Assembly: GCA_026396195.1 (NCBI GenBank)
Contig: JAPLXH010000007.1
Span: 35,006 to 99,005 of the forward strand
Direction of reading: 5' to 3'
Length of the DNA stretch: 64,000 bases
Origin: Candidatus Nealsonbacteria bacterium
Lineage (GTDB): Bacteria; Patescibacteriota; Minisyncoccia; Minisyncoccales; JAGGXC01
Shown here piece by piece: positions 35,998-61,026 of this stretch (position 1 is its first letter; every line of letters begins with the position of its first letter). The notes below the pieces were generated by a model. The model was given only the letters and a program-made list of their open reading frames with translations, ran no database searches and was not told where the DNA came from. The position numbers were made by a program, and so were the translations under genes.

Positions 35998-36196
35998 AAT
36001 TTTAATAATATTTAATTTTTTATTATTATTGTTGTTATAGAAATTTTTTTAAGGGGTTTTTTAGGCTTTTAGTTGGTGTTGTGCGGAAGTCGTTGTTGAA
36101 AAAATGTTTATAAAATAAGTATTGGGTTGTTTATGTTTTTGGTAAAAAAACAATAGAGGTTTTTTATAAGTTGGTTTTGTTTTTTTTCCACAACAG
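35998..36196. other. Candidate oriC (dnaA-dnaN intergenic region) with DnaA-box-like sites
   Basis: TTTTCCACA and TTATCCACT (each 8/9 to the TTATCCACA consensus) at about 36166-36188, plus an AT-rich tract; conserved dnaA-dnaN / rpmH-rnpA-yidD-yidC-jag neighbourhood. Confidence 0.4.
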
Positions 36197-37552: not shown

Positions 37553-37689
37553 AATTTTTTAAAACTTTAAAATTATAGTTCTAAGGTTATATTATAGGGA
37601 TTATATCTCCTGTCAAATGACCTTACTGTTGTAAGGGAAAAGCAAGGAGTTGTTTAAAAGCTGGGGACAAGTTGTGAAAATTTTTAGAA

Positions 37690-37718
37690 TTGACTAACTT
37701 TAAAATCGAGGATATACT
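37690..37718 (+). promoter_or_regulatory. Sigma-70-type promoter for the rpmH-rnpA operon
   Basis: TTGACT-N17-TATACT about 55 nt upstream of rpmH. Confidence 0.5.
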
Positions 37719-37774
37719 GATTTTAGATTTAAAATTAAAATCAAATTTTAATTTTTTAAATTTAAATTAAAATT

Positions 37775-37909
37775 ATGAGTTTTACTTATAATCCCAAAAA
37801 GAAAAAAAGAAAAAGAACCCATGGGTTCAGAAAAAGAATGAAAAAATTTGGCGGCAGGAGGGTTCTTTCCAAACGGAGAAAAAAACACAGAAAAAGATTA
37901 GCTGTTTAA
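37775..37909 (+). CDS. rpmH: 50S ribosomal protein L34
   Basis: 44-aa [44 protein letters not shown]; absent from the ORF track because it is short. Confidence 0.85.
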
Positions 37910-37913
37910 TTTA

Positions 37914-38255
37914 ATGTTGCCTTTAAAAAATAGACTAAAAAAGAAAAAAGACTTTGACGAAGTTTTTAAAAAAGGGAAAGGAATCGAAGGATTTTTTTTG
38001 TTTTTAAAAATAAAAAACAACGACTTAAAAGAAAGCAGATTTGGTTTTATAGTGTCTCAAAAGGTCAGCAAGAAAGCCGTTATTAGAAACAAAACCAAAA
38101 GAAGAATGAGGGCGGCAGTAACGAACAGGAAAAATTTTATTAAAAAAGGATTAGACATTGTTGTTATGGCCAAAAAAGGAGCTGAGCGGAAAAATTTTTT
38201 GGAAATCGAAGAAGAGCTGGTTAATCTTTTGAAAAAAATAAAAGTATTGGAATGA
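37914..38255 (+). CDS. rnpA: Ribonuclease P protein component
   Basis: Basic 113 aa, [24 protein letters not shown]; position after rpmH. Confidence 0.8.
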
Positions 38256-38461
38256 TTAAAAAAGTTTTTTTAAAAACAATTTGTTTTTATCAAAAATATT
38301 TTTCTCCGTTATTTCCAAAAGTTTGCCGTTTCTATCCGAGCTGTTCTGAATACTCGTTTTTAGCGATTAAAAAATACGGAGCAATAAAGGGAACTTTTTT
38401 AGGAATAAAAAGAATTTTAAAGTGCCATCGTTTTAATCCGGGAGGAGTAGACCTTCCTTAA
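38252..38461 (+). CDS. yidD: Membrane protein insertion efficiency factor YidD
   Basis: [11 protein letters not shown] motif. Confidence 0.8.
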
Positions 38462-38472
38462 ATTATAAAAAA

Positions 38473-39165
38473 ATGAACATAGGATTAATTTTCAATATTA
38501 TTTTTTACAAACCATTATTTGGTGCTTTGCTTTGGCTTTCTCAAAATTTGCCCGGGAATGATTTAGGAATAGCGATTATTGTTTTGACCTGTGCTATCCG
38601 CCTTTTGATTTATCCTTTAAATACAAAATCAATTCAATCCCAAAAAGCCCTCCAAAAGCTTCAGCCGAAAATTCAAGAAATCCAATCCAGATTTAAAGAC
38701 GATAAAGAAAAACAAGGGAAAGCTATAATGGACCTTTACCGTCAAGAGAAAATCAATCCTTTTTCGGGCTGCCTTCCAATGTTGATTCAACTGCCTATTC
38801 TAATGGCTTTGTTTTTGGTTTTTAAAGACTTTGCAAATAATTTAGACGTTCGGCCAATGTTTTTAGGATTAATTCCTTTAACAGAGCCTTCTAAAATTCT
38901 GGCTGTTTTGTCGGGGATTGCCCAGTTTTTTCAAGTAAAAATGGTAAGTCCTAAAAACAAGCCCGGTAAAGATAAATCAGATTTTTCACAGATAATGCAG
39001 AAAGAAATGTTGTATTTGTTTCCTTTAATCACCGTTGTTTTCTTGTGGAAACTTCCCTCAGCCATTGGCATTTATTGGTTAACTACCAGTTTGTTTTCAA
39101 TAATTCAACAATACTTAATTTTTAAGCCGAAAAATGATTATCAATCAGGAGATTCAAAAAATTAA
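38473..39165 (+). CDS. yidC: YidC/Oxa1 membrane insertase (short form)
   Basis: 5-TM core, QKLQPKIQEIQSRFKDD, PFSGCLPMLIQLPI. Confidence 0.8.
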   Translation: MNIGLIFNIIFYKPLFGALLWLSQNLPGNDLGIAIIVLTCAIRLLIYPLNTKSIQSQKALQKLQPKIQEIQSRFKDDKEKQGKAIMDLYRQEKINPFSGCLPMLIQLPILMALFLVFKDFANNLDVRPMFLGLIPLTEPSKILAVLSGIAQFFQVKMVSPKNKPGKDKSDFSQIMQKEMLYLFPLITVVFLWKLPSAIGIYWLTTSLFSIIQQYLIFKPKNDYQSGDSKN

Positions 39166-39595
39166 AAATATTATCCAGGGTTTTTTTGAAAAAATGACAA
39201 TTCCTGTTGAGGTTGAAATAAGCCCCCGAAAAGACAAAACCATTCCTATTGATATTAAAACGGAAAACCCGCAAATTTTAATTGGAGAAAGAGGGCAAAC
39301 CTTAATTGAGATTCAGCGGATTTTAAAAATTATCATTAAAAGAATAATCAAAGAAGATATTTTTATTGACTTAGATATTAATGATTATAAAAAGAAAAAA
39401 GTTGAGTATCTTAAAGAACTGGCAAGGGCTGCTGCTGACGAAGTTGTTTCTAGTAAAAAAGAAAAAATTCTGACCCCAATGCCAGCTTACGAAAGGAGAA
39501 TAGTTCACTTAGAGTTAGCTGAAATAAAAAATATTACCACCGAAAGCATCGGCGAGGAGCCGGAAAGAAAAATAGTAATCAGGCCCTATCCTTAA
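39134..39595 (+). CDS. jag: Jag-like KH/R3H RNA-binding protein
   Basis: C-terminal R3H (YERRIVHLELAE); position after yidC. Confidence 0.7.
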   Translation: MIINQEIQKIKNIIQGFFEKMTIPVEVEISPRKDKTIPIDIKTENPQILIGERGQTLIEIQRILKIIIKRIIKEDIFIDLDINDYKKKKVEYLKELARAAADEVVSSKKEKILTPMPAYERRIVHLELAEIKNITTESIGEEPERKIVIRPYP

Positions 39596-39606
39596 AATTA
39601 TTTTTT

Positions 39607-41415
39607 TTATTCTTCTTGTTCTTCAGCCAGGGATTCCTTGGCTTTTTTTATTTTCGTCAATTCTTCGGGAGAGGTAGTAATAAATTGGTCTTCAGCATAA
39701 GAAGCAATCACTTTTATTGCTACATGTTTTGGGCCGGCGAAAAATAACCCTTCTCCCACAGCCGACTCTAATAAAAGATATTTTTCTTCTTCGGTCAGGC
39801 CAAACGTTTTTTGAACTACTTCTATAGTAGCCGTAGATTGTTTCATTATGAATTGCATAGCGGAATTGGTGATAATCGGCTGGCCGTAGGTTGATTTCAT
39901 AAAATCAGCCACATCTTGGGTGACAGTAGTAACCCCCAACCAATATTTTCTCGCTCTTTTAACTAATCCAAACAAGAAAGAAGCGCCATCTTCTTTTTGC
40001 ATTATCCACCAAGCCTCATCAACCACTAAAATTCTTTTTTTAAGCTCAGACCTGACTTTATTCCAAATATAACGCATTACAATAAACATGGCTATCGGCC
40101 GCAGCTCTTCTTCTATGTCTCTAATTCCAAAAACAACCAGATTTCCTTCCATGGAAATATTGGTACGGTTGTTGAAAAAGTCAGCATAGGTTCCCTTGGT
40201 GAATTTTCTTATTCTTCTAACTAAAGATTCGGCTCCTTCCATGCCCTCCAAAACTGCTTCCAAATCTTGCATCAAAGGAATTGCTTCTTGCCATGTCCTG
40301 TGGTCGGTTTCCGGAGTAATATCTTTTGCGGCATAGGTTTCAGCAAGAGCCTGGTCTATAATCGCATCTTCTTCAGGAGTTAAACCACCGAGCATAATTC
40401 TCAAAAGTCCGACCAAATTGATGATGTTTGACCTTAAAACATCATCCGGGTTGTCATCGGCTTGCAATAACGGGAGATCAAAAGGATTTATATGATTATC
40501 AGAAGACAAGGAAATGTTAAAAAAGCGGCCTCCAACAGCTTCAGCCAAGGACCTATATTCATTTTCCGGGTCAATAATAATAACATCAACTCCCTGCATT
40601 AAAGACCTCAAAACTTCTAATTTAATTGTATAAGATTTTCCTCCGCCGGACGTTCCAAAAATTACTTCGTTCCCGTTGGCCAAAGAAAAACGGTCAAACA
40701 AGATAAGGGAATTGTTGTGTTTATTTATTCCATAAAGTACGCCGTCGTTTGAGCTTAAATCAAAAGAAATAAAAGGAAAAACACTGGACAAGGGTCCCGT
40801 GTTCATGGGAGTGTAAATTTGCATTTTATCTAAACCGTATGGTGCGCAAGTTAAAAAACCTTCTTTTTGTTGATAGTTAGCCGGTTTAATGTAAATTAAT
40901 CTTGACTCTAAAATAGAACGCAACGTAGTTTCTATTCTTTTTAATTCTTCTTCGTTTTCGCCATAAATTGTAATATAAACTCCAAGCTTCGCCATCCTTT
41001 CTTGGGCAGTTTGAAGCCTTTCTCTTAAGGATTCCAAGTCCTGATAAGCAATTTCCAGGGCAGGGTCTTTTATATACCCTTTTTCTTCTTTTTCAGAAAT
41101 TTCTGCCTGAACTTCAGTTACTTTTTTTCTTAATTTTCTTAATTCAGGGCCTGTTTCTATCGGATGGATGAAAATAGCAACATCTAGCCGGTCGCTTAAA
41201 TTAATAATAGGAGATAGCCATCCAGTGTTGATATACCTTGGATATGAAAATATAAAAAAAGACTTGGACAGCCTTTTCCCAAAATTGATGGAATCGTAAT
41301 TTATGGCTATTGAAGCCGGAGAAACAATATCTTTTAAGTCTATCCTGGAATGCTCGACGATTTTTTCCCGTTCGCTTGGCTCTATGTTTTGCTTTGTTTT
41401 TTTAAAAAAAGACAT
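39607..41415 (-). CDS. VirB4/TraC(TrbE)-like type IV secretion ATPase, C-terminal ATPase portion
   Basis: Walker A VIFGTSGGGKSYT at about residue 250, Walker B ILVVDEAWW, size and layout of Gram-positive VirB4 (PrgJ/TcpF-like). Confidence 0.55.
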   Translation of the reverse strand: MSFFKKTKQNIEPSEREKIVEHSRIDLKDIVSPASIAINYDSINFGKRLSKSFFIFSYPRYINTGWLSPIINLSDRLDVAIFIHPIETGPELRKLRKKVTEVQAEISEKEEKGYIKDPALEIAYQDLESLRERLQTAQERMAKLGVYITIYGENEEELKRIETTLRSILESRLIYIKPANYQQKEGFLTCAPYGLDKMQIYTPMNTGPLSSVFPFISFDLSSNDGVLYGINKHNNSLILFDRFSLANGNEVIFGTSGGGKSYTIKLEVLRSLMQGVDVIIIDPENEYRSLAEAVGGRFFNISLSSDNHINPFDLPLLQADDNPDDVLRSNIINLVGLLRIMLGGLTPEEDAIIDQALAETYAAKDITPETDHRTWQEAIPLMQDLEAVLEGMEGAESLVRRIRKFTKGTYADFFNNRTNISMEGNLVVFGIRDIEEELRPIAMFIVMRYIWNKVRSELKKRILVVDEAWWIMQKEDGASFLFGLVKRARKYWLGVTTVTQDVADFMKSTYGQPIITNSAMQFIMKQSTATIEVVQKTFGLTEEEKYLLLESAVGEGLFFAGPKHVAIKVIASYAEDQFITTSPEELTKIKKAKESLAEEQEE

Positions 41416-41439
41416 TTTGATTTTTATTTATTGACCGGC

Positions 41440-42084
41440 TTATTTAATTATTTCTGGCGGAATTTCCGGATAATAACCAAGTTCGGCCTCTTCCGGATGA
41501 TGCAACCCCCATAATAATTCAATTAGTTCGGCGCTGTTTAAAGGAGAAGATTGCAGTCCGCACCTTCTTAATCCTAAAGAAATAAATTCCATTCTTTGCC
41601 AAAGCTGAACTTTGGTTCTTTGAAAAACGTCTTCCGTGAGGGTTAGAGTCGGTGTTTTTGAAAGAAAGCCGGTTTTTTTAGAACTTTGAGTCTCGACAAG
41701 AGAGAAAGGCACAACGACAAAAAAATTTTTACTCATTATGGAGCTCCTTAATATTAAATCTTCAATGAACTTTCGATATTCGGCAGTTTGGATTTTTAAT
41801 AATTCGTTTTTTTGTTTTATTTCCAGGTCTTTCATTTTTTCCAAGTAACCGGTGATGTTTAACTTTCTGGATTGGACGATAATTTGTAAAGAAAAATCCA
41901 GCGAATTCAAAAAATCCTGAAATTGATAAATCGTAGCATTTTGTTCCTCTTCTTCTTTTAAAGCGAAGTTTAAAGAAGAAACCATTAAAACACCCCTCAT
42001 GGCCTTGCTCTTTAGAATCATTATTCCTTCTTTGATTTCATCTACTTCTAAAAATTGTTGCGTGGAAATATTTTTTTTATCCAT
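41440..42084 (-). CDS. VirB4-like N-terminal domain (separate ORF: split gene or frameshift)
   Basis: GIMILKSKAMRGVLMVSSLNFALKEEEEQ resembles the conserved PINFxLxSxxEQ N-terminal block of Gram-positive VirB4 proteins; 214 + 602 aa gives a full-length VirB4. Confidence 0.45.
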   Translation of the reverse strand: MDKKNISTQQFLEVDEIKEGIMILKSKAMRGVLMVSSLNFALKEEEEQNATIYQFQDFLNSLDFSLQIIVQSRKLNITGYLEKMKDLEIKQKNELLKIQTAEYRKFIEDLILRSSIMSKNFFVVVPFSLVETQSSKKTGFLSKTPTLTLTEDVFQRTKVQLWQRMEFISLGLRRCGLQSSPLNSAELIELLWGLHHPEEAELGYYPEIPPEIIK

Positions 42085-42085
42085 G

Positions 42086-42490
42086 TTAATTTTTTGTTTC
42101 TACTTGAGTGGCTAATTCTTTTAACCTGCTTTTTTTAATAATTTTAGGAGTAGTATCCTCCTCTTTTTTTTCTTTTATTCTTTCTTGCCTGATAACTATT
42201 TTGGGAGCCATTATCTTTTTTTGCCAGATATAAACTTTAGGAGATAAGTTAAAAAAGAAAAAATTTTTCAGAACAGATAAAGGATGAAGCCCGCCAATTT
42301 TTAAAAAAACCAGAGCCATAGAACCCCCTCCGACAAAAATTATAACCGGTACGTAAATATAAAAAGGTGTTTTTAAAACAGCGGCAAAACAAACAATGCC
42401 GGCTATGGCCACGACAATGAATTGCTTGAAACTGAAAGGGCCGATTACTTTAGCTTCGTATTCAATAAATTGGGGGACAGTGAATTCCAT
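42086..42490 (-). CDS. PrgI-like small two-TM membrane protein (T4SS accessory)
   Basis: 134 aa with two hydrophobic helices then a charged tail, immediately upstream of the VirB4-like ORFs, as in prgI-prgJ. Confidence 0.35.
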   Translation of the reverse strand: MEFTVPQFIEYEAKVIGPFSFKQFIVVAIAGIVCFAAVLKTPFYIYVPVIIFVGGGSMALVFLKIGGLHPLSVLKNFFFFNLSPKVYIWQKKIMAPKIVIRQERIKEKKEEDTTPKIIKKSRLKELATQVETKN

Positions 42491-42509
42491 TTATTTATTT
42501 TAGATTTTT

Positions 42510-43058
42510 TTATTCTTCTTCTTCGATTGATTCTCTATAACCGTCTTTTTTTTTACTCGTGCCAGCCGATTTTTTTTCGGTCGCGTTAACGAGTTCTACC
42601 TCTTTTTTTTCTGTTGAAGAACGAACTCCAGTCTCGGTTGGTTTTTCTTTCGGAGCGGTTTTTTCGTATAAATTGGATAAACTTAATTCGAGAGGATATA
42701 AAATAAATCTTTCAATTTCTTTGCTGACTTTTTCAGCTTTTTCTTTTTCGAAACCGAACTCTTGTTGCAAGGTTTCCGGCAGTTTTTCCGGCTCTGAAAC
42801 TCCAAGTAAAACCCGACCGACAATTTTTGCCAGTTTGGAAACTTCTTCTATGTCGTTATGCTCACAAATTTCATAAACATCATCAGCGGTTTTTTCGGAA
42901 AAAACAGCATCTTGAAGGTCAGACGGAAGATTTTCAAAAAGTTTCCAAAACTGGTTGGGAGTATAGTCTTTGGGCATAAATTTAAAAAAATTACTTTTAT
43001 TTATTTTACCACACAGACTAAAGAAGAGTAAAGAATATTGACAAATAATAATTTTCAT
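42510..43058 (-). CDS. Hypothetical cytoplasmic acidic protein (likely starts at MPKDYTPNQFW, about 42974)
   Basis: ORF only. Confidence 0.3.
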   Translation of the reverse strand: MKIIICQYSLLFFSLCGKINKSNFFKFMPKDYTPNQFWKLFENLPSDLQDAVFSEKTADDVYEICEHNDIEEVSKLAKIVGRVLLGVSEPEKLPETLQQEFGFEKEKAEKVSKEIERFILYPLELSLSNLYEKTAPKEKPTETGVRSSTEKKEVELVNATEKKSAGTSKKKDGYRESIEEEE

Positions 43059-43140
43059 GCATAATCATAGAAGAGCTAAGAGGATTAAAATGTTCTTAGC
43101 GCCTGAATAATTTCAGGTTGATTTAAAATAAAATAAAGGA

Positions 43141-44403
43141 GTGATGCGAATGGATGAAAATGATAAATCAGAAGAAGCAAAAAAAGAAGCTGAAACGGAA
43201 ATAACCGACGAAGACATTGAAGAAGACATTAAAGAGGAAAAACAGCGGAGAACATTAACTGAAATAGGTTTAAGTGCTGCGATTATTCTTTGGTGGATAT
43301 TATTTCCGACAATAGGATATCTGGCAATAAACGCAATAACCGCGATTTTGCCAACTTCAGCATATATATTATTTATCGATTTTCCGCTTAGAGACTTAGC
43401 TTTTCTTGTTCTGATTATCGTATTAATAGCGCTTGAAATCAGATATATCTACAAGTCTTGGGGATTTATTTCTTACAGGCCCCCTTATGTTGGACTAGGA
43501 GTAATCTGGGGAAAAAGGAAGGTTAAAATAGTAAAAAAAGAAGGATGGATATTGATTGCCGATTACTTTCCCTTTAACTACACAGTTACTTTAATAAAAG
43601 TTCAAAAAATCGACAAAGATTTTACTTTCTCGGACATAAGGACCAAGGCGAAAGAAGAAGAAAAGGACTCTAAATTGCCGTCTAGGTCAGGAGCATTGGT
43701 TGAAGTAGATGTTTCTTTAACTTTTATTCCGGACTACAAAGGCAAGGATGCCGGGGAAAGGCTTAAATCTTATTTGAATAGTGGAGAAGCAGAGGGCGTT
43801 ATAAACATTATCCAAGACCAAATTGCAGAAGAGTTAAGAATTTTAGGCGGGAAACACGATTGGGAAGAATATACTTTCAGTGCGACAGAAATAAAAAGGG
43901 TGCTATTGGAGAAGCTTACAGGAGCTGATATTAACGGGGCAAAAGATGAAAAAGAAAAAGCTAAAAGACAAAGAAAGATTGAACGGGAAATTCGAATTTC
44001 AGGAGCCAGAGATGTGTCAGACTTAGGCATAAGAATATGCAGATTAAACATAGGACAAATAGATTTGCCGAAAAATAGTTCTATGAAAAAGGAAGCTGAC
44101 AGTCTGGAAAGAGAAAGGCAAAAAAGGCAGGGAGACACCATTCAAATGAATTTTCTAGAGGAGCAGGTAAGAAAGTTTATAGCCCTCGGTTTAAGTCCTG
44201 GAGAAGCGTCAGACGTTGTCCAAACCCAACTTAAAATGGCCGGTAAAAATATCAATACCTTCCGGGGATTAGAAGGAAGCAAAGGCAAAGACGGTCAAAG
44301 TCAGGGAATAACGCCCAATATCATAGCTATCGTAGAAGACAAAGTCAGAACCAGTAAAGAAAAAACCAAAAAGAAAGACGAAGACGAAGAAGAAAACGAA
44401 TAA
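43141..44403 (+). CDS. Membrane protein with SPFH/band-7-like domain and K/E-rich tail
   Basis: Acidic N-terminus, 3 TM, then GLGVIWGKRKVKIVKKEGWILIADYFPFNYTVTLIKV...; coiled-coil C-terminus; an upstream TTGACA-N17-ATAATC. Confidence 0.4.
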   Translation: MMRMDENDKSEEAKKEAETEITDEDIEEDIKEEKQRRTLTEIGLSAAIILWWILFPTIGYLAINAITAILPTSAYILFIDFPLRDLAFLVLIIVLIALEIRYIYKSWGFISYRPPYVGLGVIWGKRKVKIVKKEGWILIADYFPFNYTVTLIKVQKIDKDFTFSDIRTKAKEEEKDSKLPSRSGALVEVDVSLTFIPDYKGKDAGERLKSYLNSGEAEGVINIIQDQIAEELRILGGKHDWEEYTFSATEIKRVLLEKLTGADINGAKDEKEKAKRQRKIEREIRISGARDVSDLGIRICRLNIGQIDLPKNSSMKKEADSLERERQKRQGDTIQMNFLEEQVRKFIALGLSPGEASDVVQTQLKMAGKNINTFRGLEGSKGKDGQSQGITPNIIAIVEDKVRTSKEKTKKKDEDEEENE

Positions 44404-44415
44404 ATCGACAGTAAA

Positions 44416-44462
44416 CAAAAAAGGGATTAATTTCTAATATTAAATTAATCCCTCTTTTTTAT
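44416..44462. terminator. Bidirectional terminator (perfect 12-bp stem AGGGATTAATTT / AAATTAATCCCT)
   Basis: Lies between the convergent SPFH-like gene and the VirB6-like gene. Confidence 0.6.
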
Positions 44463-44499
44463 TTTTAGTTTGTTTTATTTTCCATTTATTTCACTTTTT

Positions 44500-46938
44500 T
44501 TATTTTCTTCCTTGTTTTTTTATCCAATTTTCGTCTTCTTTTCTTTTTTTCCTTGCCGCTGCTTCTTCTTCTCTTCTTTTTTTAATTACCATATTTTCTT
44601 CTTCTCTTCTTTTTTTCCTTATTATTTCCTCTTCTTCTCTCATTCTTTTTTGATGTTCCCTGATGCTTTCAGGCTTACCAGTTGTCCAACCGACGTCTTC
44701 CTCGTGTTGCATTCCTGCTATCGGCGGTACCGGCGGCGGCGTTTGTCTTTCTCGCAGAACTTGTCTAATAGACCTAGGTTCTGTTTCAGTAGCTTCAGGG
44801 GAAGACTTTGTGGCACCAGACATGTTTTGTGGAGTGCTTTTCGAGTTTTTCCATTTTTCTTGGTCTTTTCTCATTTTATCATTTCTTTTTTTAATCTTGT
44901 CCTTAATATTTAATCCTTCAATTGGAGTGAAACCTGCTTCTTGAGCAGTGTTGCTGGCTAAATAGCCAGGCAATCGAGAGTTTCTTGGTTGCCCGGTTTT
45001 TTCATCAATTTCATAATACCAATCTGAATTGCCATTGTGAACTGCATCGTGTTTTCCCGCCTCAAAGTCAGATACAAATCCTTGGCCGAATTTTTTAGCT
45101 GCCTCTGAAATTTGAGGCCCGGCCCAGAACTTGTGGGCAGCCTCCATAAGGTCTTTATCTGAATGCCAGCCTTTTTGAAGGGATTTGATTTCATTATCGT
45201 CTTTAGCTTCTTTGATAATTTTTTCTCCATAAGACTTAAATCCATCTTTTTCCATTTGTTCTTTTGTATAAGTTCCTCTTCTTCCCTGAATAACTCCGAA
45301 TTCTTCAGGCATATCTTTTGTAAAAGCCCTTTCCATATTTTTCTGTTCTTCTTTTTTACCCATAAGCCCTAATTGGTCATAAGCTTTTGTCAGTTCCAGC
45401 TTGCCCTGGGCTGTTACATTTCCGTCCTTGTCTTTAACCAGTTTATCTATGCCACCTGTTTGTTTTTGTTCCATCATGCTCTGTAAAATAGCACTCCTTT
45501 TAGCCGCATCAACAGGATTAGTTTTCAGATATGCTTCAACGTTTTTATCAGAGTCTTGTTCTTTGGAGGCTTGTTGGTAAGCTTCGTTATAAGCTCCTTT
45601 ATCCATCTCTTTAGTGCTATTTAGGTAAGCTCTTCCCATCTTGCTTTTCCAGCTTTTATTTACCAGACCGCCGCTTTTGGCACCTCCTTTTTGCGTAGAC
45701 CATTGTTGCATTCTTGATTGCATTTTTTCGCCGGTTTTAGTATGACCAGCCGCCCTAGTGACCTTACCTCCCGCCTTTTTAGCTTTTTTCATTATTCCAG
45801 CAAAACCTCCCATTCCCTTGTAGGCGCCTTCCAATTTTGAAATTGCGACATCAGCGCCGGCAGGAACGTATTTTTTGGTAATGTGAAAAGCAACAGCCAG
45901 GAAGCAAAGTAAAAATAAATAATCAAAAGTGGAGTCAGGCAGCCTGAAAGAAGGAAGTCCGCTGGCAGCCGAAAGATCTATGTTTCCCGGCCTGACTACA
46001 AAAGATTGAGTATATAAAGTTGTTATTAATCCGGTTAAAAATAAAGCCACCACGCCTAAAAAAGCCCATTGTACGACAAAAGTAAGCCATTTTTTAAAAT
46101 ATTTTTCAGTTTGAGGAAAAATTAAGCAGAAAAAAGCCAAAGGAGCAAAAATAGACAAAAGCCAAAGCGCGGCGATTCTTATTAAGAAAAGAATAAAATA
46201 GATAAAATAAATAGCTCCTAAGACCAAATTCATTGCGATCAGTACGACCATAGAAAAAATATCGCCCAACAAACTTCCCATAAAAGTTTGGGTAAGAAGA
46301 ATGGCAAGAGAGAAGATGCTTCCAAAAGCTGTAAAAGCGCTGGCAACATAGGCAGTAACGGTTACCAGCATAACATTTATTATTGCGCTAAAGCTTGATT
46401 GTAAGGGACGGAGAGCCGCGCTGACAAAGTCGGTTCCGAAAGCTTGAATAAAAGTGTTCATAAAGAACTGGGCAATGTCAGTAAAAATTCCCACTATAAG
46501 CAAGCTAAAATTAACCAACAAAATAACAATAACTAATCTGACAAAAGATTTTTTAGACTGCAGGCTTTCAATTTTTAAAATATAACCCAAGGCAATGAAG
46601 ATAATAGACAAAACAAAAAAGATGTTAACCAGTCCCGAGACGAAAGTCCATCCTGCCCAAACCGTGGGATTGCTTATATTAACAGGAATACTGATTGCCC
46701 ATTGAAAAAGATGAGCGGACAAAACGACAAAACCTGAAGATGCAAAAGCGAGCAAAATGAGTTTTACCAACAAGCCCAGAATCTGTTGGTCTATAAAATC
46801 AAGGGCATTCAAAACCGTGTCAACATAATCAAAAATTCCGGTTCCAATTATTGCCTTGGCTTGATTAGAAAAAATAAAGAATCCCGTAAAAACAAGACAA
46901 ACAAGTAAGATTATTTTATATTTTTTAATTTTAGCCAT
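44500..46938 (-). CDS. VirB6/TrbL-like polytopic membrane protein with long hydrophilic C-terminal tail
   Basis: Signal peptide, about 8 TM helices in the first 400 aa, then a 400-aa charged tail; assignment rests on topology and operon context only. Confidence 0.4.
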   Translation of the reverse strand: MAKIKKYKIILLVCLVFTGFFIFSNQAKAIIGTGIFDYVDTVLNALDFIDQQILGLLVKLILLAFASSGFVVLSAHLFQWAISIPVNISNPTVWAGWTFVSGLVNIFFVLSIIFIALGYILKIESLQSKKSFVRLVIVILLVNFSLLIVGIFTDIAQFFMNTFIQAFGTDFVSAALRPLQSSFSAIINVMLVTVTAYVASAFTAFGSIFSLAILLTQTFMGSLLGDIFSMVVLIAMNLVLGAIYFIYFILFLIRIAALWLLSIFAPLAFFCLIFPQTEKYFKKWLTFVVQWAFLGVVALFLTGLITTLYTQSFVVRPGNIDLSAASGLPSFRLPDSTFDYLFLLCFLAVAFHITKKYVPAGADVAISKLEGAYKGMGGFAGIMKKAKKAGGKVTRAAGHTKTGEKMQSRMQQWSTQKGGAKSGGLVNKSWKSKMGRAYLNSTKEMDKGAYNEAYQQASKEQDSDKNVEAYLKTNPVDAAKRSAILQSMMEQKQTGGIDKLVKDKDGNVTAQGKLELTKAYDQLGLMGKKEEQKNMERAFTKDMPEEFGVIQGRRGTYTKEQMEKDGFKSYGEKIIKEAKDDNEIKSLQKGWHSDKDLMEAAHKFWAGPQISEAAKKFGQGFVSDFEAGKHDAVHNGNSDWYYEIDEKTGQPRNSRLPGYLASNTAQEAGFTPIEGLNIKDKIKKRNDKMRKDQEKWKNSKSTPQNMSGATKSSPEATETEPRSIRQVLRERQTPPPVPPIAGMQHEEDVGWTTGKPESIREHQKRMREEEEIIRKKRREEENMVIKKRREEEAAARKKRKEDENWIKKQGRK

Positions 46939-46941
46939 TTT

Positions 46942-48081
46942 TTAAAAAATTGGGCCGGGAATTAAGTTGCAGTTTAAATCAAGCGTAAAGGTTGCCAAAG
47001 GAGAAGCAAAGCCAAGGGCTCCTCCGAAAGCAGCGGCTCGATAATAATAAAGAGATGAAGTGGCAAGACTGCTGGTGGCAATACTGAAAGGAACGGGGTT
47101 CGCGTTGTCGATAAATTTTTGTTCTCTTGGGGCGGGAGGCCGGGGAAGTTGTTGGTCAAGATATATTGGGTCTTTTCCGTATTCAAAAAAAACATCAACC
47201 TTATCATTTCTTTTCATATCAGTGACCTCTCCGTTGAAAACAACATTGCAGGTTTGGTCTGTGTTTTGTTGGGGAGCTCCTGCTGTTGGGGTTACATTTT
47301 TAACCAAGGGAGTTCCTGGGGGAGAAAAATCAGTAATCCTAACTGAGTGCACGTGGTCTAAAGACATCCAACCAAGGGTTGATTGGCTCTTTGATATGGC
47401 AGTGAATTCTCCTGCACAGCCAGGGTCTTTATAAAGATTTAATTGGCATGCTCCTTCTATTTGAATTGACTTTGGCGGCGTCAACGCTCCCCAGCCGAAC
47501 AATCCCCAGACCGAAACTCCAAAATCTTTACAAGGGTCCGACGGATCTATATCTCCGGGAGCAAAGAAATCAAGCGAAGGATTAAGCAAATCCTCTTGAT
47601 AGTTTGCAAAATGATAAAGCCTTACCCATACGCAAGGCTTTTCATAATTAGGAGCTGACCACAAAGAAGTGTTGAGAAAAGGAACAGTTGTTGTGGGAAG
47701 GGTTATGGTTGTTAACTCCGGATTTAAGGTGTTTAAGATGATAAAGGACGACAAAAGTAAGACAAGGCCGATAAGAGCGTCTCTTATTCTGTCTTGGCCC
47801 TCTTTCATTTTTATCGGGTCGCCTACTGAAGTTAAATATTTGAATCCTCCAAAAATTAAAGCAAAAAAAGCAGCCAGTCCTCCCAATAAGATTGCCCATC
47901 TGTACACGTATTCGGTAAAATCAACTAAATTGCTGGTTGTTGTCAGTGTTTTTCCTCCGGGCGCTTCCGGCCAGTCAGTTTCTAATGCTTGCGTTGTTTC
48001 AAAAAAAGCGCCGGATAAAATAATGGCAACTAAAAAAGATATCAGTAAAATCTTTTTATTTTTTTTCAAAAAATTTTTCAT
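46942..48081 (-). CDS. TrbC/VirB2-like pilin-domain protein with C-terminal extension
   Basis: Signal peptide, then two hydrophobic segments (YVYRWAILLGGLAAFFALIFGGF ... IGLVLLLSSFIILNTLNP), then a 250-aa Cys-containing domain. Confidence 0.4.
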   Translation of the reverse strand: MKNFLKKNKKILLISFLVAIILSGAFFETTQALETDWPEAPGGKTLTTTSNLVDFTEYVYRWAILLGGLAAFFALIFGGFKYLTSVGDPIKMKEGQDRIRDALIGLVLLLSSFIILNTLNPELTTITLPTTTVPFLNTSLWSAPNYEKPCVWVRLYHFANYQEDLLNPSLDFFAPGDIDPSDPCKDFGVSVWGLFGWGALTPPKSIQIEGACQLNLYKDPGCAGEFTAISKSQSTLGWMSLDHVHSVRITDFSPPGTPLVKNVTPTAGAPQQNTDQTCNVVFNGEVTDMKRNDKVDVFFEYGKDPIYLDQQLPRPPAPREQKFIDNANPVPFSIATSSLATSSLYYYRAAAFGGALGFASPLATFTLDLNCNLIPGPIF

Positions 48082-48099
48082 TATTTTATTATAACTTAT

Positions 48100-48774
48100 T
48101 TATTTAATCAATTGAATAGACTCCAATATTTCATTAATTTCTTTTTCTATTTTTTCATTTTTATTTTCCCTTGAAAAAACAAAAGAAATAAAATAAGCTT
48201 TTTTATTGTTTTGGTCGTAGTCAACCAACAATATTTTTTCTTTTGAGTAAAAAATATTATTAGGAGAACTTTTTTTTGCATAAAGGGCCCTGAAAAAAGC
48301 CTCCTTTTCCTTAGTTTCGATTTCAATAATTTCCGTTGTAATCCCTTCTTTGTCGTTTATTTCTTTCATTATATCAATTATTTCTTGGGGCGTATTTTTT
48401 AAATCAAAAAACCCCTCGGTTACCGTTAAGCCGTAAAAAATATCATTTTTAATTCTTGAAGCTAAAAATAAGTTTTTAAATTTATATTTTTCTCGGGCTT
48501 CTTTTGGAATTCCTTCTTGGAAGTTTTTTGTATCTGTCGCCTCTACCCAGTTTGAAGGGTAAACAAATTTTAATTTTTCATCGGGGGTGATAAATTCTTT
48601 TTTCGGAAAATCTTTTTCTTCGGAAACTAAAGATTCTATTTGTTGGATGTTTTTTTGGGAAAAAAAATCTTTGGGAAACAAAGTTTCTTTTAGGAAGAAA
48701 AAAGTAAGCAAAAAAATAAATCCGACGGCTAATAAAATAAGCAATATATTTTTAAGAAAACTTTTCATTTTCAA
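48100..48774 (-). CDS. N-terminally anchored periplasmic protein (VirB8-like topology, hypothetical)
   Basis: Single N-terminal TM plus a roughly 190-aa soluble domain. Confidence 0.3.
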   Translation of the reverse strand: MKMKSFLKNILLILLAVGFIFLLTFFFLKETLFPKDFFSQKNIQQIESLVSEEKDFPKKEFITPDEKLKFVYPSNWVEATDTKNFQEGIPKEAREKYKFKNLFLASRIKNDIFYGLTVTEGFFDLKNTPQEIIDIMKEINDKEGITTEIIEIETKEKEAFFRALYAKKSSPNNIFYSKEKILLVDYDQNNKKAYFISFVFSRENKNEKIEKEINEILESIQLIK

Positions 48775-48780
48775 TTTTTA

Positions 48781-51222
48781 TCATAAGGGGATATCCCACC
48801 ATTGACCAAAAAATTCGAATTTATATCCCACGAATGCCAAAAGAAGATTTATTAAAAGCCAAGCTCCGAAAATAACGGCATATCCTATCAGAGTAGCTTT
48901 AAATACTGATTTTACCTGAGACATAATCGTGGTTTCTCCTTTTGAAATAAAGAATAACCCGGCGACGGCCAGAAGTATCAAAATGATAAAAATCGTTGCT
49001 ATTTTCCAAAGAGCAAAATCTAAAATATTTCTAAGAAGCAAGAAAATATGTATTATTTGGCAGGACTCCCTTTCGTTAAAAGGAGTATCGGGGTTGTCAT
49101 ATTTTTTACCGCAAGGCACTAAACCGCCCTTAGCTTCGGGAGGAGTAGTCAGGCTTAAAACAAAATTTTCCTCCGCGCTCCAGCCTCCGCTTGCATTACA
49201 ATTTACATCTAAGCAGGCCTCCACTTTCCAGGAATAAGTTCCGTTTTCAGAAAAGTCCCACGAAGCATAAGAGGCGTAATTAGAAGAAACTATTTGGTTA
49301 AAAAGTTCCTCTCCGTTGAAAGTTATTATATAATGATATTTTTTTGCTCCGATTACTGAGTTCCAGGAAAAATTTATATTTCCGGATGTTTCGACTAATT
49401 GGCCGCCAACAGGATAAGTAAGGGTCGGGGTGCTGATATTAAAGGTTTTAAAATTTCGAAGTTTAGGGTCAAGAAGAGCCTGGTTAGGAAGTCCGCACCT
49501 TCCATTATTGGCGCAAGTTCTGACTCTCCACCAATACCAAGTCGAGGTTCCCAGGGCGGGATAATCTAAAATAAGGTCAGAAGCCGAAGTGGTTCCGGTC
49601 CAGACTATACTGCCCATAACAAAAGGGGCTATGGTTAATTCTATTTTATAAAAACCAGCCCCGGCGATATCTTCCCAATCAAGCCTAACCGGCAAAACAA
49701 TATCAGTCATTGCATTATCCGGTTTTTTTAATTCCGGAGTTCTTCCGGTTGTTCTGAATTGCCAAGGGGCTAGCCAACCCGTGCAGGCTTGGCATTTATT
49801 GTCTGTGCAGGGGTTGACTGTCCAGCTATATACTTGGTTTAAGTTTAAATCTAAAACAGCTCCAGCTCCCGAGGTTGTTCCTTGGATTACGCTTCCGTCG
49901 CTTAATTTTGTTGTTTTATAAAAAAAAGAGTTAAACCCCATTGCTCTTGTCCATATAAGATTAACAGGAACATTTATTGAACTGCTTGGCAATGAATTAT
50001 TGGGAGGAGAGACTAAGGTAACTACGCCAGGCGTAGCAGGGCTGGTTTTAAATCCCCATTTTTGGCTGGTAGTGCACACTCCAAGTCCTTCTTTTTCCCA
50101 ACAAGTAGAAACCTCCCATCTGTAGGTTTTATCAACATTAAAAAAAGCGTCGAGGTCTTCATAAAAAGAAATTGCGTATATATAAGGATTGGAAGGTTCA
50201 ATTTCAATAGGATCTCCATGGAGAGTTTCTACTCCACCCTCTAAGATGTATGGTTGGACCTCATAGTAATCAGCTTCTTTGACATTGCACCATTCAAGGG
50301 TAACTGGCACCAAAGCATCTAAAAACATTTCAGTTGTGTTGTTCCAATCCGGGTCCGGCGGCGATACGGGTTGGGGAGCTAAGCTTAATTCGAAAGAAGA
50401 GGTTGAGACAGCGTCCCACGTTTTGCATTCAGTTCCATCGGCGTTACAACAAGGCATGATTTTCCATCTGGTTGAAGTGGACTGAGTAAAAGTAGTATTG
50501 ACGGGCAGCTTTAAAAAACAGGGAGTTGTGTTTCCGCTTGCGGGAATTACCCAGGTTTGATTTGCCAGAACGCCGGAGTTTGTGGCTAAAGGGCCGTTAT
50601 TGCTAATAAATCCGGAACTGGTAGCTTGAGACAGTATCCAAGAAGTAGTTGTGGGCGGGTCTGCTTTCCAGGCTCTGTGCCAGTAAGAGTTGGCTCCCGG
50701 AACCTTATTCCAGGCAAGTTTTATAGGAAGACGAACATTTGTATTGGGGACAATTCCAGTTCCTGACTCTAAATGAGGGCTTGTTGGATCTGACAAGCAT
50801 TCGCCCTTGCATTCACAATAATCATCGTCAGGAGCTTGCCAACTGGTATTTCCTATACAAATTTGATAATCCGCACAATCTTTCCATATATTGGTTAACG
50901 AGCTTCCTCCTCCGCAGCCACTCCAACCGCCGCATACCCATATGAAATTTCCTCCTCCGACATCTACACAATCTACGCTACGAGTTTTTTGATAACCTGA
51001 ATTAGTTTGCCTTTCAACGTTATTGCTGGTATCAGTGCAATCATTATTTGATTGGCATCGATAATAAGTGCTATTGTCACATCCTGAAGAAGTAGTGTCG
51101 TCTGGCTTTGGAAGAGTAGTGCATGGGTCTCCGCAGCCAGCCCTAACCTTTGGGATTAAAACAAGCAATCCTGCTAAAAAAACAAAAATAATTAATAGTT
51201 TAAAAAATAAATTTTTATTCAT
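48781..51222 (-). CDS. Large Cys-rich repetitive surface protein fused to a C-terminal TrbC/VirB2-like pilin domain
   Basis: Signal peptide; Cys-rich head; about 6 roughly 100-aa Trp/Cys modules (e.g. YSWTVNPCTD, TSTWYWWRVRTCANNGRCG); C-terminal two-helix domain (IATIFIILILLAVAGLFFISKG...IGYAVIFGAWLLINLLLAF) paralogous to 46942..48081 and 60335..60946. Confidence 0.45.
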   Translation of the reverse strand: MNKNLFFKLLIIFVFLAGLLVLIPKVRAGCGDPCTTLPKPDDTTSSGCDNSTYYRCQSNNDCTDTSNNVERQTNSGYQKTRSVDCVDVGGGNFIWVCGGWSGCGGGSSLTNIWKDCADYQICIGNTSWQAPDDDYCECKGECLSDPTSPHLESGTGIVPNTNVRLPIKLAWNKVPGANSYWHRAWKADPPTTTSWILSQATSSGFISNNGPLATNSGVLANQTWVIPASGNTTPCFLKLPVNTTFTQSTSTRWKIMPCCNADGTECKTWDAVSTSSFELSLAPQPVSPPDPDWNNTTEMFLDALVPVTLEWCNVKEADYYEVQPYILEGGVETLHGDPIEIEPSNPYIYAISFYEDLDAFFNVDKTYRWEVSTCWEKEGLGVCTTSQKWGFKTSPATPGVVTLVSPPNNSLPSSSINVPVNLIWTRAMGFNSFFYKTTKLSDGSVIQGTTSGAGAVLDLNLNQVYSWTVNPCTDNKCQACTGWLAPWQFRTTGRTPELKKPDNAMTDIVLPVRLDWEDIAGAGFYKIELTIAPFVMGSIVWTGTTSASDLILDYPALGTSTWYWWRVRTCANNGRCGLPNQALLDPKLRNFKTFNISTPTLTYPVGGQLVETSGNINFSWNSVIGAKKYHYIITFNGEELFNQIVSSNYASYASWDFSENGTYSWKVEACLDVNCNASGGWSAEENFVLSLTTPPEAKGGLVPCGKKYDNPDTPFNERESCQIIHIFLLLRNILDFALWKIATIFIILILLAVAGLFFISKGETTIMSQVKSVFKATLIGYAVIFGAWLLINLLLAFVGYKFEFFGQWWDIPL

Positions 51223-51357
51223 ATTTTCATTAATTTTAACTTTTTTGCTTAATAAATACTATTTTTGAAGATGTGGATATCTTGGTTTTAAAGTTGTGCA
51301 ATTTCTGTGGAAAAAATACTTGACGGAAATGGCTAAATCAGATATTTTAAAAAGCAG

Positions 51358-52395
51358 ATGCACAGAAAGCTTAAAAAAGCCCCCTTCTTGGGGGTCATAG
51401 CGCTTATAGCGATTATTTTGGGAGTCGGAATGTTTTATGTCTCATTTTCTAAATCCTTTAAAAAAGACAAAGGGTTAGTTTCCGGTTTTGATAACAGATT
51501 ATTTTTGGAAAAATCGACCAAGACCATTGAGTCGCCTAATTTATCTTTAGTTCAGGAAAATAGTATTTTCGGAGTCTCCTGTTCCCAGATTATTTCTTCA
51601 AAAGCCCTTGGAGTTTTAGTTGGAGAGGAAAGTACGGAAGACAAGAAAGAAATTACAGAATATATCGTTCAATCGGGGGACACAATCGGGTCAATTGCCG
51701 AAGATTTTAATATTACCGTAAATACTATTCTTTGGGCCAACGGCTTAAACAAAAGTTCAACCTTGAAATCGGGCCAAAAATTAATAATTTTGCCGGTTTC
51801 CGGAATTTTTCATAATGTAAAAAAGGGGGATACCATAGACCAAATAATCAAAACTTATAAAGGAAATAAAGAAGAAATAATTGCTTTTAACGAGTTAACC
51901 CCTGAAGGAGAAATTTATGTCGGTGATATTTTGATTATTCCCAATGGCACAAAACCGGCGCCAGTTTCAATTCCAAAACCAATTCAGTCGGCCTCGCCCT
52001 TAGCTGCCAGTTATTTTATACCTCCAATTCTTTCTCCTTATAGAATCACCCAAGGCCTTCATTGGTTTAATGCTGTTGATTTTGCTTACCATTCGGAAAG
52101 TTGCGGCAAGCCGGTTTTAGCGGCAGCCGAAGGAACAATTTTGAAAATTAAGTATGGTTACAATGGAGGAGCGGGCAATTATATAAAAATTATTCATCCC
52201 AACGGCTTAATTACCCATTACGGGCATTTGCAAGTTATTTTAGTAAAACAAGGAGATAAGGTTTCTCAAGGAGATATAATCGGTTCCATTGGTTATAGCG
52301 GGAAAACCATTCCTGCGGGACCCGGCGGTTGTCATCTTCATTTCGGCCTAGACTCAGAAGTCGGCATTTCTCCTAGCAATCCTTTTACAAAGTAA
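51358..52395 (+). CDS. LysM-domain M23 peptidoglycan endopeptidase
   Basis: Two LysM repeats (GDTIGSIAEDFNITVNTILWANGL; GDTIDQIIKTYKG), M23 motifs (HYGHLQVILVKQGDKVSQGDIIGSIGYSG; HLHF). Confidence 0.8.
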   Translation: MHRKLKKAPFLGVIALIAIILGVGMFYVSFSKSFKKDKGLVSGFDNRLFLEKSTKTIESPNLSLVQENSIFGVSCSQIISSKALGVLVGEESTEDKKEITEYIVQSGDTIGSIAEDFNITVNTILWANGLNKSSTLKSGQKLIILPVSGIFHNVKKGDTIDQIIKTYKGNKEEIIAFNELTPEGEIYVGDILIIPNGTKPAPVSIPKPIQSASPLAASYFIPPILSPYRITQGLHWFNAVDFAYHSESCGKPVLAAAEGTILKIKYGYNGGAGNYIKIIHPNGLITHYGHLQVILVKQGDKVSQGDIIGSIGYSGKTIPAGPGGCHLHFGLDSEVGISPSNPFTK

Positions 52396-59361: not shown

Positions 59362-59373
59362 TTTTTATTTTTT

Positions 59374-59877
59374 TTAATCTTTTAATAAGTATTTACTGGG
59401 AGTTTTATCCAGGTCTATAAATTCATCGGCTGCTTCTTTTAATTTAGAGGAAGTGGTTTTACCGAAAGCTAAAACCTCAACTCTTTTGCCCTGATTTTTT
59501 AAATATTCGACTAAAGGAAAAAAATCCCCGTCTCCCGAGCAGAGCACAATTACATCCAAGCTTTGGGCGGTTCTTACGGCGTCAATAACTATCCCGACGT
59601 CCCAATCGGCTTTTTTCATTCCGTCGTAAAATTCTTGTAAATCTTTTACTCTCATTTCAATTCCCAACTTGGTTAAGGCTTCAAAAAAAGGTTTTTCTTC
59701 GCCTGTTTTTGTTTTTACCACATAAGCGAAAGCCCTGATAAACTTCCGGCCGGCTATCGCTGTTTTGAGAATTTCCCTGAAATTAACCTTGGATTTGTAA
59801 AGATTTTTAGCCGAATGATAAAGGTTTTGAACATCAATGAGTGCTTCCACTCTTTGTTCAATCGGTTTTATTGCCAT
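59374..59877 (-). CDS. NYN-domain (LabA/DUF88-like) protein
   Basis: ALIDVQNLYHSAKNL...VLCSGDGDF. Confidence 0.65.
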   Translation of the reverse strand: MAIKPIEQRVEALIDVQNLYHSAKNLYKSKVNFREILKTAIAGRKFIRAFAYVVKTKTGEEKPFFEALTKLGIEMRVKDLQEFYDGMKKADWDVGIVIDAVRTAQSLDVIVLCSGDGDFFPLVEYLKNQGKRVEVLAFGKTTSSKLKEAADEFIDLDKTPSKYLLKD

Positions 59878-60954: not shown

Positions 60955-61026
60955 TGCCCTCGAGAGGATTCGAACCCCTATCTTTTGTTCCGAAGACAAA
61001 GATGTTGTCCGTTACACCACGAGGGC
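60955..61026 (-). tRNA. tRNA-Arg(UCG)
   Basis: GCCCTCG TG GTGT AACGGACA ACAT C TTTGT CTTCGGA ACAAA AGAT AGGGG TTCGAAT CCTCT CGAGGGC A; no CCA. Confidence 0.7.

Follow-up and report, generated by a model that had tools for sequence, protein, structure and literature searches.

A probable resident type IV secretion system beside the replication-origin genes of a Candidatus Nealsonbacteria genome

The window, a stretch of 64,000 nucleotides from a Candidatus Nealsonbacteria bacterium (contig JAPLXH010000007.1, positions 35,006 to 99,005), carries at positions 39607-52395 a gene cluster that very probably encodes a resident chromosomal type IV secretion system (T4SS) of Paceibacteria: derived from mating pair formation systems of the FATA type (MPF_FATA), vertically inherited next to the replication origin and serving contact-dependent exchange with a host rather than conjugation. 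The published parts list and proximity to dnaA match the window; the cluster is thus an instance of the Patescibacteria T4SS already described in 2023-2025, and nothing in it is new in kind. A sequence-only reading of this DNA had proposed a T4SS-like apparatus of Gram-positive type, which is borne out by a VirB6-acidic protein-PrgI-VirB4 N-domain-VirB4 core accompanied by pilin-domain proteins and a hydrolase. The ten open reading frames (ORFs) that it had placed in 39607-52395 were all recovered at the same coordinates in the ORF map and the translations, with two starts revised. Operon A runs on the minus strand from 51222 down to 44500 (813-aa surface protein, 224-aa anchored protein, 379-aa pilin-domain protein, 812-aa VirB6; aa, amino acids) and operon B on the same strand from 43058 down to 39607 (acidic protein, PrgI/VirB3, 214-aa TrsD/TraC-like protein, 602-aa VirB4 ATPase). 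The plus strand carries the SPFH/Band-7 gene and the gene of the LysM-LysM-M23 endopeptidase. The genes of the cluster are listed by position, with the evidence in brackets. Pfam matches were judged against the gathering score.

39607-41415, minus: VirB4 ATPase, 602 aa (NCBIfam NF045971, PDB 4AG5, Pfam, Walker motifs)
41440-42084, minus: TrsD/TraC-like protein, 214 aa, free-standing homologue of the VirB4 N-domain (NCBIfam, PF26593)
42086-42490, minus: PrgI/VirB3-like small membrane protein, 134 aa, with a hydrophobic hairpin (Pfam PrgI, hydropathy)
42510-42977, minus: 'ac', acidic cytoplasmic helical protein, 155 aa from Met28 (conserved family, AlphaFold2 model)
43150-44403, plus: divergent SPFH/Band-7 membrane protein, 417 aa (weak Pfam match, NCBI name, homologues with PF01145)
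44500-46938, minus: extended VirB6, 812 aa (Pfam TrbL/VirB6, hydropathy, composition)
46942-48081, minus: VirB2-like pilin-domain protein, 379 aa (Pfam T4SS_pilin, NCBIfam NF045849, topology)
48100-48774, minus: membrane-anchored PsbP-like protein, 224 aa (Pfam PsbP_2 below cut-off, PDB profile search)
48781-51222, minus: surface protein, 813 aa, with a C-terminal VirB2-like pilin domain (Pfam, BLASTP, locally built profiles)
51358-52395, plus: membrane-anchored peptidoglycan endopeptidase, two LysM domains and M23 (Pfam Peptidase_M23 2.5e-21, LysM 3.1e-20)

The VirB4 ATPase exceeds the cut-off of NCBIfam NF045971, the CD1110 family of C. difficile CTn2 (5.9e-108, 362 bits, cut-off 325, profile positions 178-733 of 752). 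It matches the C-domain of Thermoanaerobacter VirB4 (PDB 4AG5) at 7.6e-42, R388 TrwK at 1e-6, and Pfam P-loop_TraG (6e-29) and AAA_10 (6.4e-14). Walker A (GTSGGGKS) and Walker B (ILVVDEAW), read from the translation, are intact. An FtsK/HerA-type ATPase is rejected: the protein passes the CD1110 VirB4 equivalog cut-off and its DUF87 match is secondary, so the VirB4 call of the sequence-only reading holds. The 214-aa TrsD-like protein matches only N-terminal parts of full-length VirB4 models (NF045975, positions 99-233, 4.4e-11; NF045971, positions 2-117, 2.7e-6). On the VirB4 model of the Mycoplasma integrative and conjugative element (ICE; Mbov_0397), it covers positions 99-233 and the 602-aa VirB4 covers 276-892. 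The two proteins cover successive parts of both models and therefore tile a full-length monoderm VirB4, in agreement with the free-standing VirB4 N-domain proposed beforehand. The homology of the TrsD-like protein with the VirB4 N-domain was shown by these NCBIfam models; alignment of the TrsD family by hhalign with the first 240 residues of VirB4 proteins from these loci did not reach significance (probability 0.1). Its match to TrsD NF041427 is weak (0.0072), its precomputed Pfam family is PF26593 ('TraC-like'), and searches of the PDB by sequence and by profile returned no credible match. For its AlphaFold2 model (predicted local distance difference test, pLDDT, 74), the first 11 PDB matches by Foldseek are all R388 TrwK/VirB4 and are weak (E 0.1-0.6). 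The gene is found in 64 of 65 related loci.

The other two membrane components of the core were also assigned as the sequence-only reading had them. The PrgI gene, directly upstream of the TrsD-like gene and virB4 and present in 65/65 loci, encodes a protein scoring 28.3 bits on Pfam PrgI (2.6e-6, cut-off 27), with a hydrophobic hairpin at residues 15-68 according to hydropathy. VirB6, found in 45 of 53 loci, scores 31.1 bits on Pfam TrbL/VirB6 (2.6e-7, cut-off 25.9). Its polytopic membrane domain, with several hydrophobic segments, spans residues ~45-355 and is followed by a K/E-rich hydrophilic tail of ~450 aa.

The history of the cluster was read from its neighbourhood in related genomes. 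A scan of a genome collection found VirB4 homologues at 55-76% identity in at least 149 species-level genomes, among which 80 listed loci were compared by tblastn and iterative profile searches. All but one of these loci are titled Patescibacteria (Paceibacteria: Nealsonbacteria, Wildermuthbacteria and others) or unclassified; the exception, L002, was deposited as a Pseudomonadota bin. Proteins identical to those of the window are already at NCBI under locus tags NTU58_*. The flank on the virB4 side is as follows.

34867-39595: origin-region flank with dnaN, dnaA, rpmH (37775-37909), rnpA, yidD, yidC and jag (Pfam; rpmH by translation; same order beside virB4 in related loci)

On the jag side the window reads pbp1, dnaN, dnaA, rpmH, rnpA, yidD, yidC, jag, and on the opposite side comM, a DksA-type zinc finger, a 933-aa coiled-coil membrane protein (cc933), polynucleotide phosphorylase (PNPase, pnp) and a NYN nuclease. 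The flanks named by the sequence-only reading, rpmH-rnpA-yidD-yidC-jag and comM, are thereby confirmed, with dnaA and dnaN just beyond. The conserved block of the relatives is VirB6 > ac > PrgI > TrsD > VirB4 (> and <, gene orientation), in some lineages followed by a few pilin or unknown genes; the downstream order is jag < yidC < (yidD <) rnpA < dnaA > dnaN > pbp1 <. Where at least 8 kb is available downstream of virB4 (n=56), yidC is present in 56/56 loci and dnaA, within 10 kb, in 52/56; virB4 directly abuts jag or yidC in 20/71 loci, as in the window. About 11 loci share the left flank pnp > cc933 > dksA > (comM >) M23 <. Identity of VirB4 to its window counterpart follows that of DnaA (Spearman 0.87, n=56; dnaN against dnaA, 0.90), with mean identities to the window of 62% for VirB4 and 53% for DnaA. 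The GC content at third codon positions (GC3) is 0.26-0.36 in the module genes and 0.29-0.39 in the flanks, two overlapping ranges. Direct repeats resembling attachment (att) sites were sought around the module and only low-complexity matches were found; Pfam identifies no integrase among the window ORFs, and no tRNA adjoins the cluster. The sequence-only reading had described an inserted module. That reading fails, and does so by a refuting condition that it had named itself, universal synteny in relatives: the cluster is syntenic in all related loci with enough flank, co-diverges with DnaA and shows no sign of integration in flanking repeats or in GC3. As judged from sequence comparison, the cluster is inherited vertically.

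Departures from the common arrangement are seen in two loci. In L045 (DATKWJ010000022.1, 6800-12000), only PrgI-TrsD-VirB4 lie between M23 and jag, and VirB6, 'ac' and pilin genes were not detected there; this could be a partial loss or a relocation of the cluster. In L011 (6600-9400), rnpA is followed by dnaN and then dnaA, each on the minus strand; this is a local inversion of an arrangement, dnaA > dnaN >, that is constant elsewhere.

DnaA boxes are not enriched across the window (17 against 13.5 expected); the origin itself is therefore not located, and the origin context rests on dnaA, dnaN, rpmH and rnpA. Pairs of DnaA-box-like 9-mers with one mismatch occur at 51272-51314 (divergent intergenic region of the 813-aa and M23 genes) and 36184-36205 (between dnaN and dnaA); these are probably due to chance, as the motif is not enriched window-wide.

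The pilin-domain proteins are mostly large fusions. The 379-aa protein comprises a signal peptide, a two-helix pilin domain (residues 48-120) and a Cys-containing C-terminal ectodomain of 258 aa. It matches Pfam T4SS_pilin above the cut-off (6.6e-9, 36.2 bits, cut-off 26.6), which agrees with the VirB2-like domain proposed earlier, and NCBIfam NF045849 (Mycoplasma ICE pilin-like) below it (5.2e-6). The 813-aa protein comprises a signal peptide, a Cys-rich ectodomain of ~690 aa (29 Cys) and a two-helix pilin domain at residues 716-803. Its C-terminal 115 aa alone match T4SS_pilin at 0.014, and its orthologue in L001 matches T4SS_pilin at 3.1e-5 and an immunoglobulin (Ig)-like domain at 2.7e-8. 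By BLASTP the 813-aa protein matches (6e-10) a third protein of this kind:

60335-60946, minus: third VirB2-like pilin gene, 203 aa (Pfam T4SS_pilin, PF18895, 1.5e-6, 28.6 bits, cut-off 26.6)

This gene is 8 kb outside the cluster, directly downstream of a tRNA-Arg gene (60955-61026) and upstream of a tRNA-Lys gene; its start is placed after the tRNA-Arg, over which the mechanical ORF call runs. A profile built from any one of the three window pilins recovers the other two at 1e-15 to 1e-35. Across the 80 loci, 89 ORFs with a pilin domain were found, 7 of at most 200 aa and 82 longer. In 61 of the 89 the domain is near the N-terminus and followed by a C-terminal extension of more than 100 aa; the other 21 long ORFs include 6 with a large N-terminal ectodomain and a C-terminal pilin domain, as in the 813-aa protein. 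The sequence-only reading had called the large pilin fusion non-standard. Such fusions recur in relatives and are no oddity of this genome.

Two subtypes of pilin domain can be told apart: A, with the motifs '...GG.kY.ts.GnP...INP.L', and B, which contains Cys ('LVPCG...C..hlF...'). The C-terminus of the 813-aa protein is of subtype B, of which a stand-alone version of 143 aa is encoded at L024:104-535 (Wildermuthbacteria). Cys pairs recur every ~95-100 aa in the 813-aa protein, a hint at tandem Ig/FN3-like domains; comparison of the protein with itself by BLAST gave no significant internal repeats. The only NCBIfam family matched by the 379-aa pilin and by several short Paceibacteria pilins, such as L035:12105-12452 and L020:4793-5176, is Mbov_0395 ('pilin-like conjugal transfer protein'), always below the cut-off (E from 1.6e-6 to 0.08); these sequence matches suggest that VirB2-like or pilin-like proteins also exist in a monoderm ICE lineage.

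Both Pfam domains of the LysM-M23 protein were matched, in line with the murein hydrolase predicted from the sequence, and the protein is likely the functional counterpart of VirB1/PrgK. Among the 15 related loci with an M23 homologue, 11 have it divergent at the same position, upstream of the virB6 operon; in L019, L022, L037 and L044 it is elsewhere or on the same strand. VirB1 candidates containing M23/LysM are associated with virB4 in Paceibacteria (PMC12102498).

The acidic protein 'ac' is a core-operon member, encoded between VirB6 and PrgI in 59/65 loci. Its start is most likely Met28 (42977) and not 43058, on the basis of the family alignment and of the public gene call. The family numbers 1,351 representatives at 50% identity (E<=1e-3) and has a nearly invariant C-terminal D-x-Y-R-E motif. 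None of 47 members has a Pfam match, and neither sequence nor profile searches of the PDB gave a credible one. An AlphaFold2 model built from 3 sequences predicts a six-helix domain (pLDDT about 90 over residues 10-105), for which Foldseek found nothing meaningful in the PDB (best E 2.3). For one genome examined in Table S3 of PMC12102498, no label is given to the gene between VirB6 and VirB3.

The SPFH gene, whose start was revised from 43141 to 43150 (417 aa), lies on the opposite strand between the two operons, and two signals adjoin it:

42978-43149: intergenic region from which the 'ac' operon and the SPFH gene diverge (promoter-like sites, plus and minus strand)
44417-44458: terminator-like hairpin, bidirectional, where the SPFH and virB6 genes converge (inverted repeat)

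The promoter-like sites are consensus matches only (plus strand, 43038-43065, 11/12; minus strand, 43032-43003). The gene, the hairpin and the divergent promoter-like region split the cluster into two operons, whereas relatives without the SPFH gene have a single co-directional string. The window protein scores below the cut-off of Pfam Band_7 (3.8e-4, 21 bits, cut-off 23.6). NCBI lists the identical protein as 'SPFH domain-containing protein', and PF01145 is present in homologues of 44% and 25% identity. Fifteen related loci have, between VirB6 and 'ac' or PrgI, an opposite-strand gene for a clear Band_7 protein (1.3e-16 in L001); among the 53 loci with at least 6 kb of upstream flank, 14 have an SPFH gene in that slot. 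In the window this slot is filled by a divergent copy. The SPFH assignment of the sequence-only reading is thus supported by name, homologues and positional equivalents, not by the Pfam score of the window protein itself. That reading had called it a non-standard T4SS part; the gene recurs at the same position in relatives and is no peculiarity of one genome. A restriction of the SPFH gene to the window genome, first suggested by tblastn, was overturned by the Pfam scan of L001 and an iterative profile search. SPFH is mentioned neither in PMC12102498 nor in the supplements examined. Elsewhere in the window (8352-9113, plus), a canonical SPFH/Band-7 protein is encoded (9.6e-36).

The 224-aa anchored protein is found in only 6 loci, the window included. 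It matches Pfam PsbP_2 below the cut-off (3.8e-5), 5 of the 6 family members weakly match PsbP or PsbP_2, and its best PDB profile matches are PsbP-family proteins (0.011). Sequence does not support it as a candidate for the missing VirB8: it looks PsbP-like and has no VirB8/NTF2 match in Pfam or in the PDB profile search. VirB8 was rarely found in the survey of Patescibacteria T4SSs (PMC12102498).

That survey (Quinonero-Coronel et al. 2025, PMC12102498) covered 3,035 Patescibacteria genomes and showed that VirB4 there forms a monophyletic clade inside MPF_FATA; TrsD, PrgI/VirB3, VirB6 and PF18895 VirB2-like genes lie near virB4, and the cluster is close to dnaA, dnaN, rnpA and rpmH. The window shares with this clade (PMC12102498, PMC10633639) VirB4, TrsD, PrgI/VirB3, VirB6 and PF18895 pilins, as well as the M23/LysM hydrolase of Paceibacteria, a chromosomal location beside dnaA/dnaN/rnpA/rpmH, and a cluster without relaxase or type IV coupling protein (T4CP, VirD4); nothing fundamental differs. 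Not discussed in the main text of PMC12102498 are the acidic protein between VirB6 and VirB3, the recurrent opposite-strand SPFH gene, pilin-domain fusions of 200-1,400 aa as the majority near virB4, and immediate adjacency to jag/yidC. A 2025 review describes the Patescibacteria systems as unique among monoderm T4SSs (PMC12857230).

With conjugative MPF_FATA systems the window shares a VirB4 above the CD1110 equivalog cut-off and the lack of an outer-membrane core: no window ORF matches VirB7, VirB9 or VirB10 in Pfam or NCBIfam. The gene order VirB3-TrsD-VirB4 matches the pGO1 type of pGO1/pIP501 (TrsC-TrsD-TrsE), and the upstream VirB6 recalls pCF10 (PrgH-PrgI-PrgJ-PrgK); a cell-wall hydrolase within the locus is shared as well. 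Unlike these systems, the window has no T4CP, relaxase or origin of transfer (oriT) and possesses VirB2-like pilins; its hydrolase is LysM-M23 and not SLT/CHAP, its cluster is chromosomal, fixed and not mobile, and no PrgB-type adhesin or VirB8-like PrgL/TraM was recognised in it. In Mycoplasma, the transfer genes belong to a mobile ICE that has a DDE transposase. The window VirB4 (2e-85) and TrsD-like protein (4.4e-11) match the Mbov_0397 model of that ICE, but all scores are below the family cut-offs, which indicates a relative and not the same family.

The following mechanism is proposed. VirB4 and TrsD, docked on VirB3 and VirB6, would energise an envelope-spanning channel, the M23 enzyme would open the peptidoglycan locally, and the SPFH protein may scaffold the membrane complex, a role suggested by S. 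aureus flotillin, an SPFH protein which supports assembly of the type VII secretion system as a scaffold (PMC5718613). The channel would extrude a short VirB2-type tube or fibre, the subunits of which would display their Ig-like, Cys-rich ectodomains towards the host. VirB2 has an N-out/C-out topology in the F- and T-pilus structures. Because of this topology, N- and C-terminal pilin fusions would both face outwards. The apparatus would thus mediate contact-dependent transfer of macromolecules between epibiont and host, by import or export, and not plasmid conjugation. Southlakia epibionticum cannot grow on its host without the T4SS genes (SEML1_0006-0019) and the pilin array (Wang et al. 2023, PMC10633639).

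Several points weigh against this reading. The essentiality data come from Saccharimonadia, a different class from Paceibacteria. The 80 loci were selected by similarity to the window VirB4, and the synteny statement applies to Paceibacteria relatives only. The fibre step needs a putative polymerisation of pilin-domain proteins of 379-813 aa. No VirB8-like subunit was recognised, the 224-aa protein being the only bitopic candidate in the cluster, and an SPFH profile made from the proteins at the equivalent position does not match the window SPFH protein. Patescibacteria commonly have T4CP homologues, which in most genomes are encoded far away from virB4 (PMC12102498).

Import of host nucleic acid, as DNA (in the manner of ComB/Ced) or RNA, into an organism unable to make nucleotides is a possible function, though less likely than not. 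It is the hypothesis of PMC12102498 and PMC11665869. In Southlakia, comEC is dispensable while the T4SS is essential (PMC12857230). A cultivated member is reported to show tubular structures towards its host and to take up host RNA, and the same 2026 preprint proposes feeding on host RNA via PNPase and possibly the T4SS, to which the tubes may belong (10.64898/2026.06.21.733656). The pnp and NYN RNase genes of the window (57283-59877, minus) are 5-7 kb away, syntenic in several loci, and comM is adjacent. All of this support is circumstantial. Linkage to pnp and comM may be no more than part of the overall conservation around the origin, and only 3 related loci have comM adjacent; none of the components was recognised as binding nucleic acid, and no fold relatives of 'ac' were detected. 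The DNA-uptake T4SSs of H. pylori (ComB) and Crenarchaeota (Ced) are likewise VirB4-driven and relaxase-free, with import proposed or shown; however, ComB needs a diderm VirB7/9/10 core, absent in the window, and the match of the window VirB4 to CedB is generic (57 bits, cut-off 700).

Delivery of proteins into or onto the host, or formation of an adhesive fibre only, is put as high as import and is likewise tentative. Wang et al. 2023 (PMC10633639) favour protein export or an alternative role because of the lack of relaxase and coupling protein, and the large, fast-evolving, Ig-like and Cys-rich ectodomains of the pilin-domain proteins are of a kind typically seen in proteins that recognise hosts. 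Neither candidate effectors nor recognition signals were identified, and the cluster contains no T4CP, although Ptl and Brucella VirB work without one (PMC12102498); as to adhesion, type IV pili already provide it in Saccharibacteria (PMC12857230). An improbable extension, offered as such, would make the VirB2 hairpin a general module for anchoring large, fast-evolving host-binding ectodomains or incorporating them into a pilus, make 'ac' and, in its subclade, the SPFH protein core parts of a decorated conduit, and couple nucleic-acid import through it to degradation by PNPase and the NYN RNase.

A working conjugation system exporting DNA, with coupling protein and relaxase encoded elsewhere in the genome, is very unlikely. 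The T4CP homologues mentioned above would suit it, and the absence of both functions is established over 64 kb of the genome, where no VirD4/T4CP or relaxase is encoded among ORFs of at least 100 aa. Relaxases, however, occur in only 103 of the 3,035 genomes, Southlakia can do without its distant t4cp homologue but not without the T4SS genes (PMC12102498), and a fixed, syntenic state across a whole class would be unexpected. The sequence-only reading had likewise seen no VirD4 or relaxase and had doubted a conjugative plasmid; with neither gene nearby, the cluster probably does not serve conjugation.

An integrated conjugative or mobilisable element or genomic island between jag and comM can be dismissed with near certainty, for although its parts descend from conjugation machinery (CD1110/CTn2-family VirB4, similarity to the VirB4 and pilin-like proteins of the Mycoplasma ICE) and its GC content is slightly above that of the whole window (0.375 against 0.353, the excess being confined to the Cys/Gly/Thr/Pro-rich ectodomain genes), it is contradicted by the constant position, the correlation with DnaA and the flank-like GC3, by the lack of integrase, relaxase, T4CP, adjacent tRNA and att-like repeat in the window, and by the rarity of exchange between classes (PMC12102498). 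A recent insertion is thereby refuted; a single acquisition long ago, in the ancestor of Patescibacteria as PMC12102498 proposes, is possible.

Some other genes of the window were noted. The 933-aa protein (54446-57247, minus) consists of an E/K-rich coiled coil of ~660 aa, one transmembrane helix and an ectodomain of ~230 aa; its gene has a very low GC content (0.29) and a strong AT skew, and lies beside DksA-type zinc-finger and M23 genes in 10 related loci. The protein has no Pfam, NCBIfam or PADLOC match, and the PADLOC defence models do not match the SPFH, PsbP-like, acidic or DksA-like protein either. A PilB/T2SSE-type ATPase (27076-28374, plus, 2e-120) belongs to type IV pili or competence, and a protein with two lamin-tail domains is encoded at 28643-29863 (plus).

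For a very large bacterial radiation, most of it uncultured, the Patescibacteria T4SS is one of the few machines whose necessity for epibiotic life is known, and the window offers a clean Paceibacteria example of it. Three leads for work on the mechanism emerge: the 'ac' protein, as a large, unannotated family inside the core operon; the SPFH gene, which keeps a fixed position in one subclade; and the predominance of large fusions among the 'pilins', which matters for the question of a true pilus and for host recognition.

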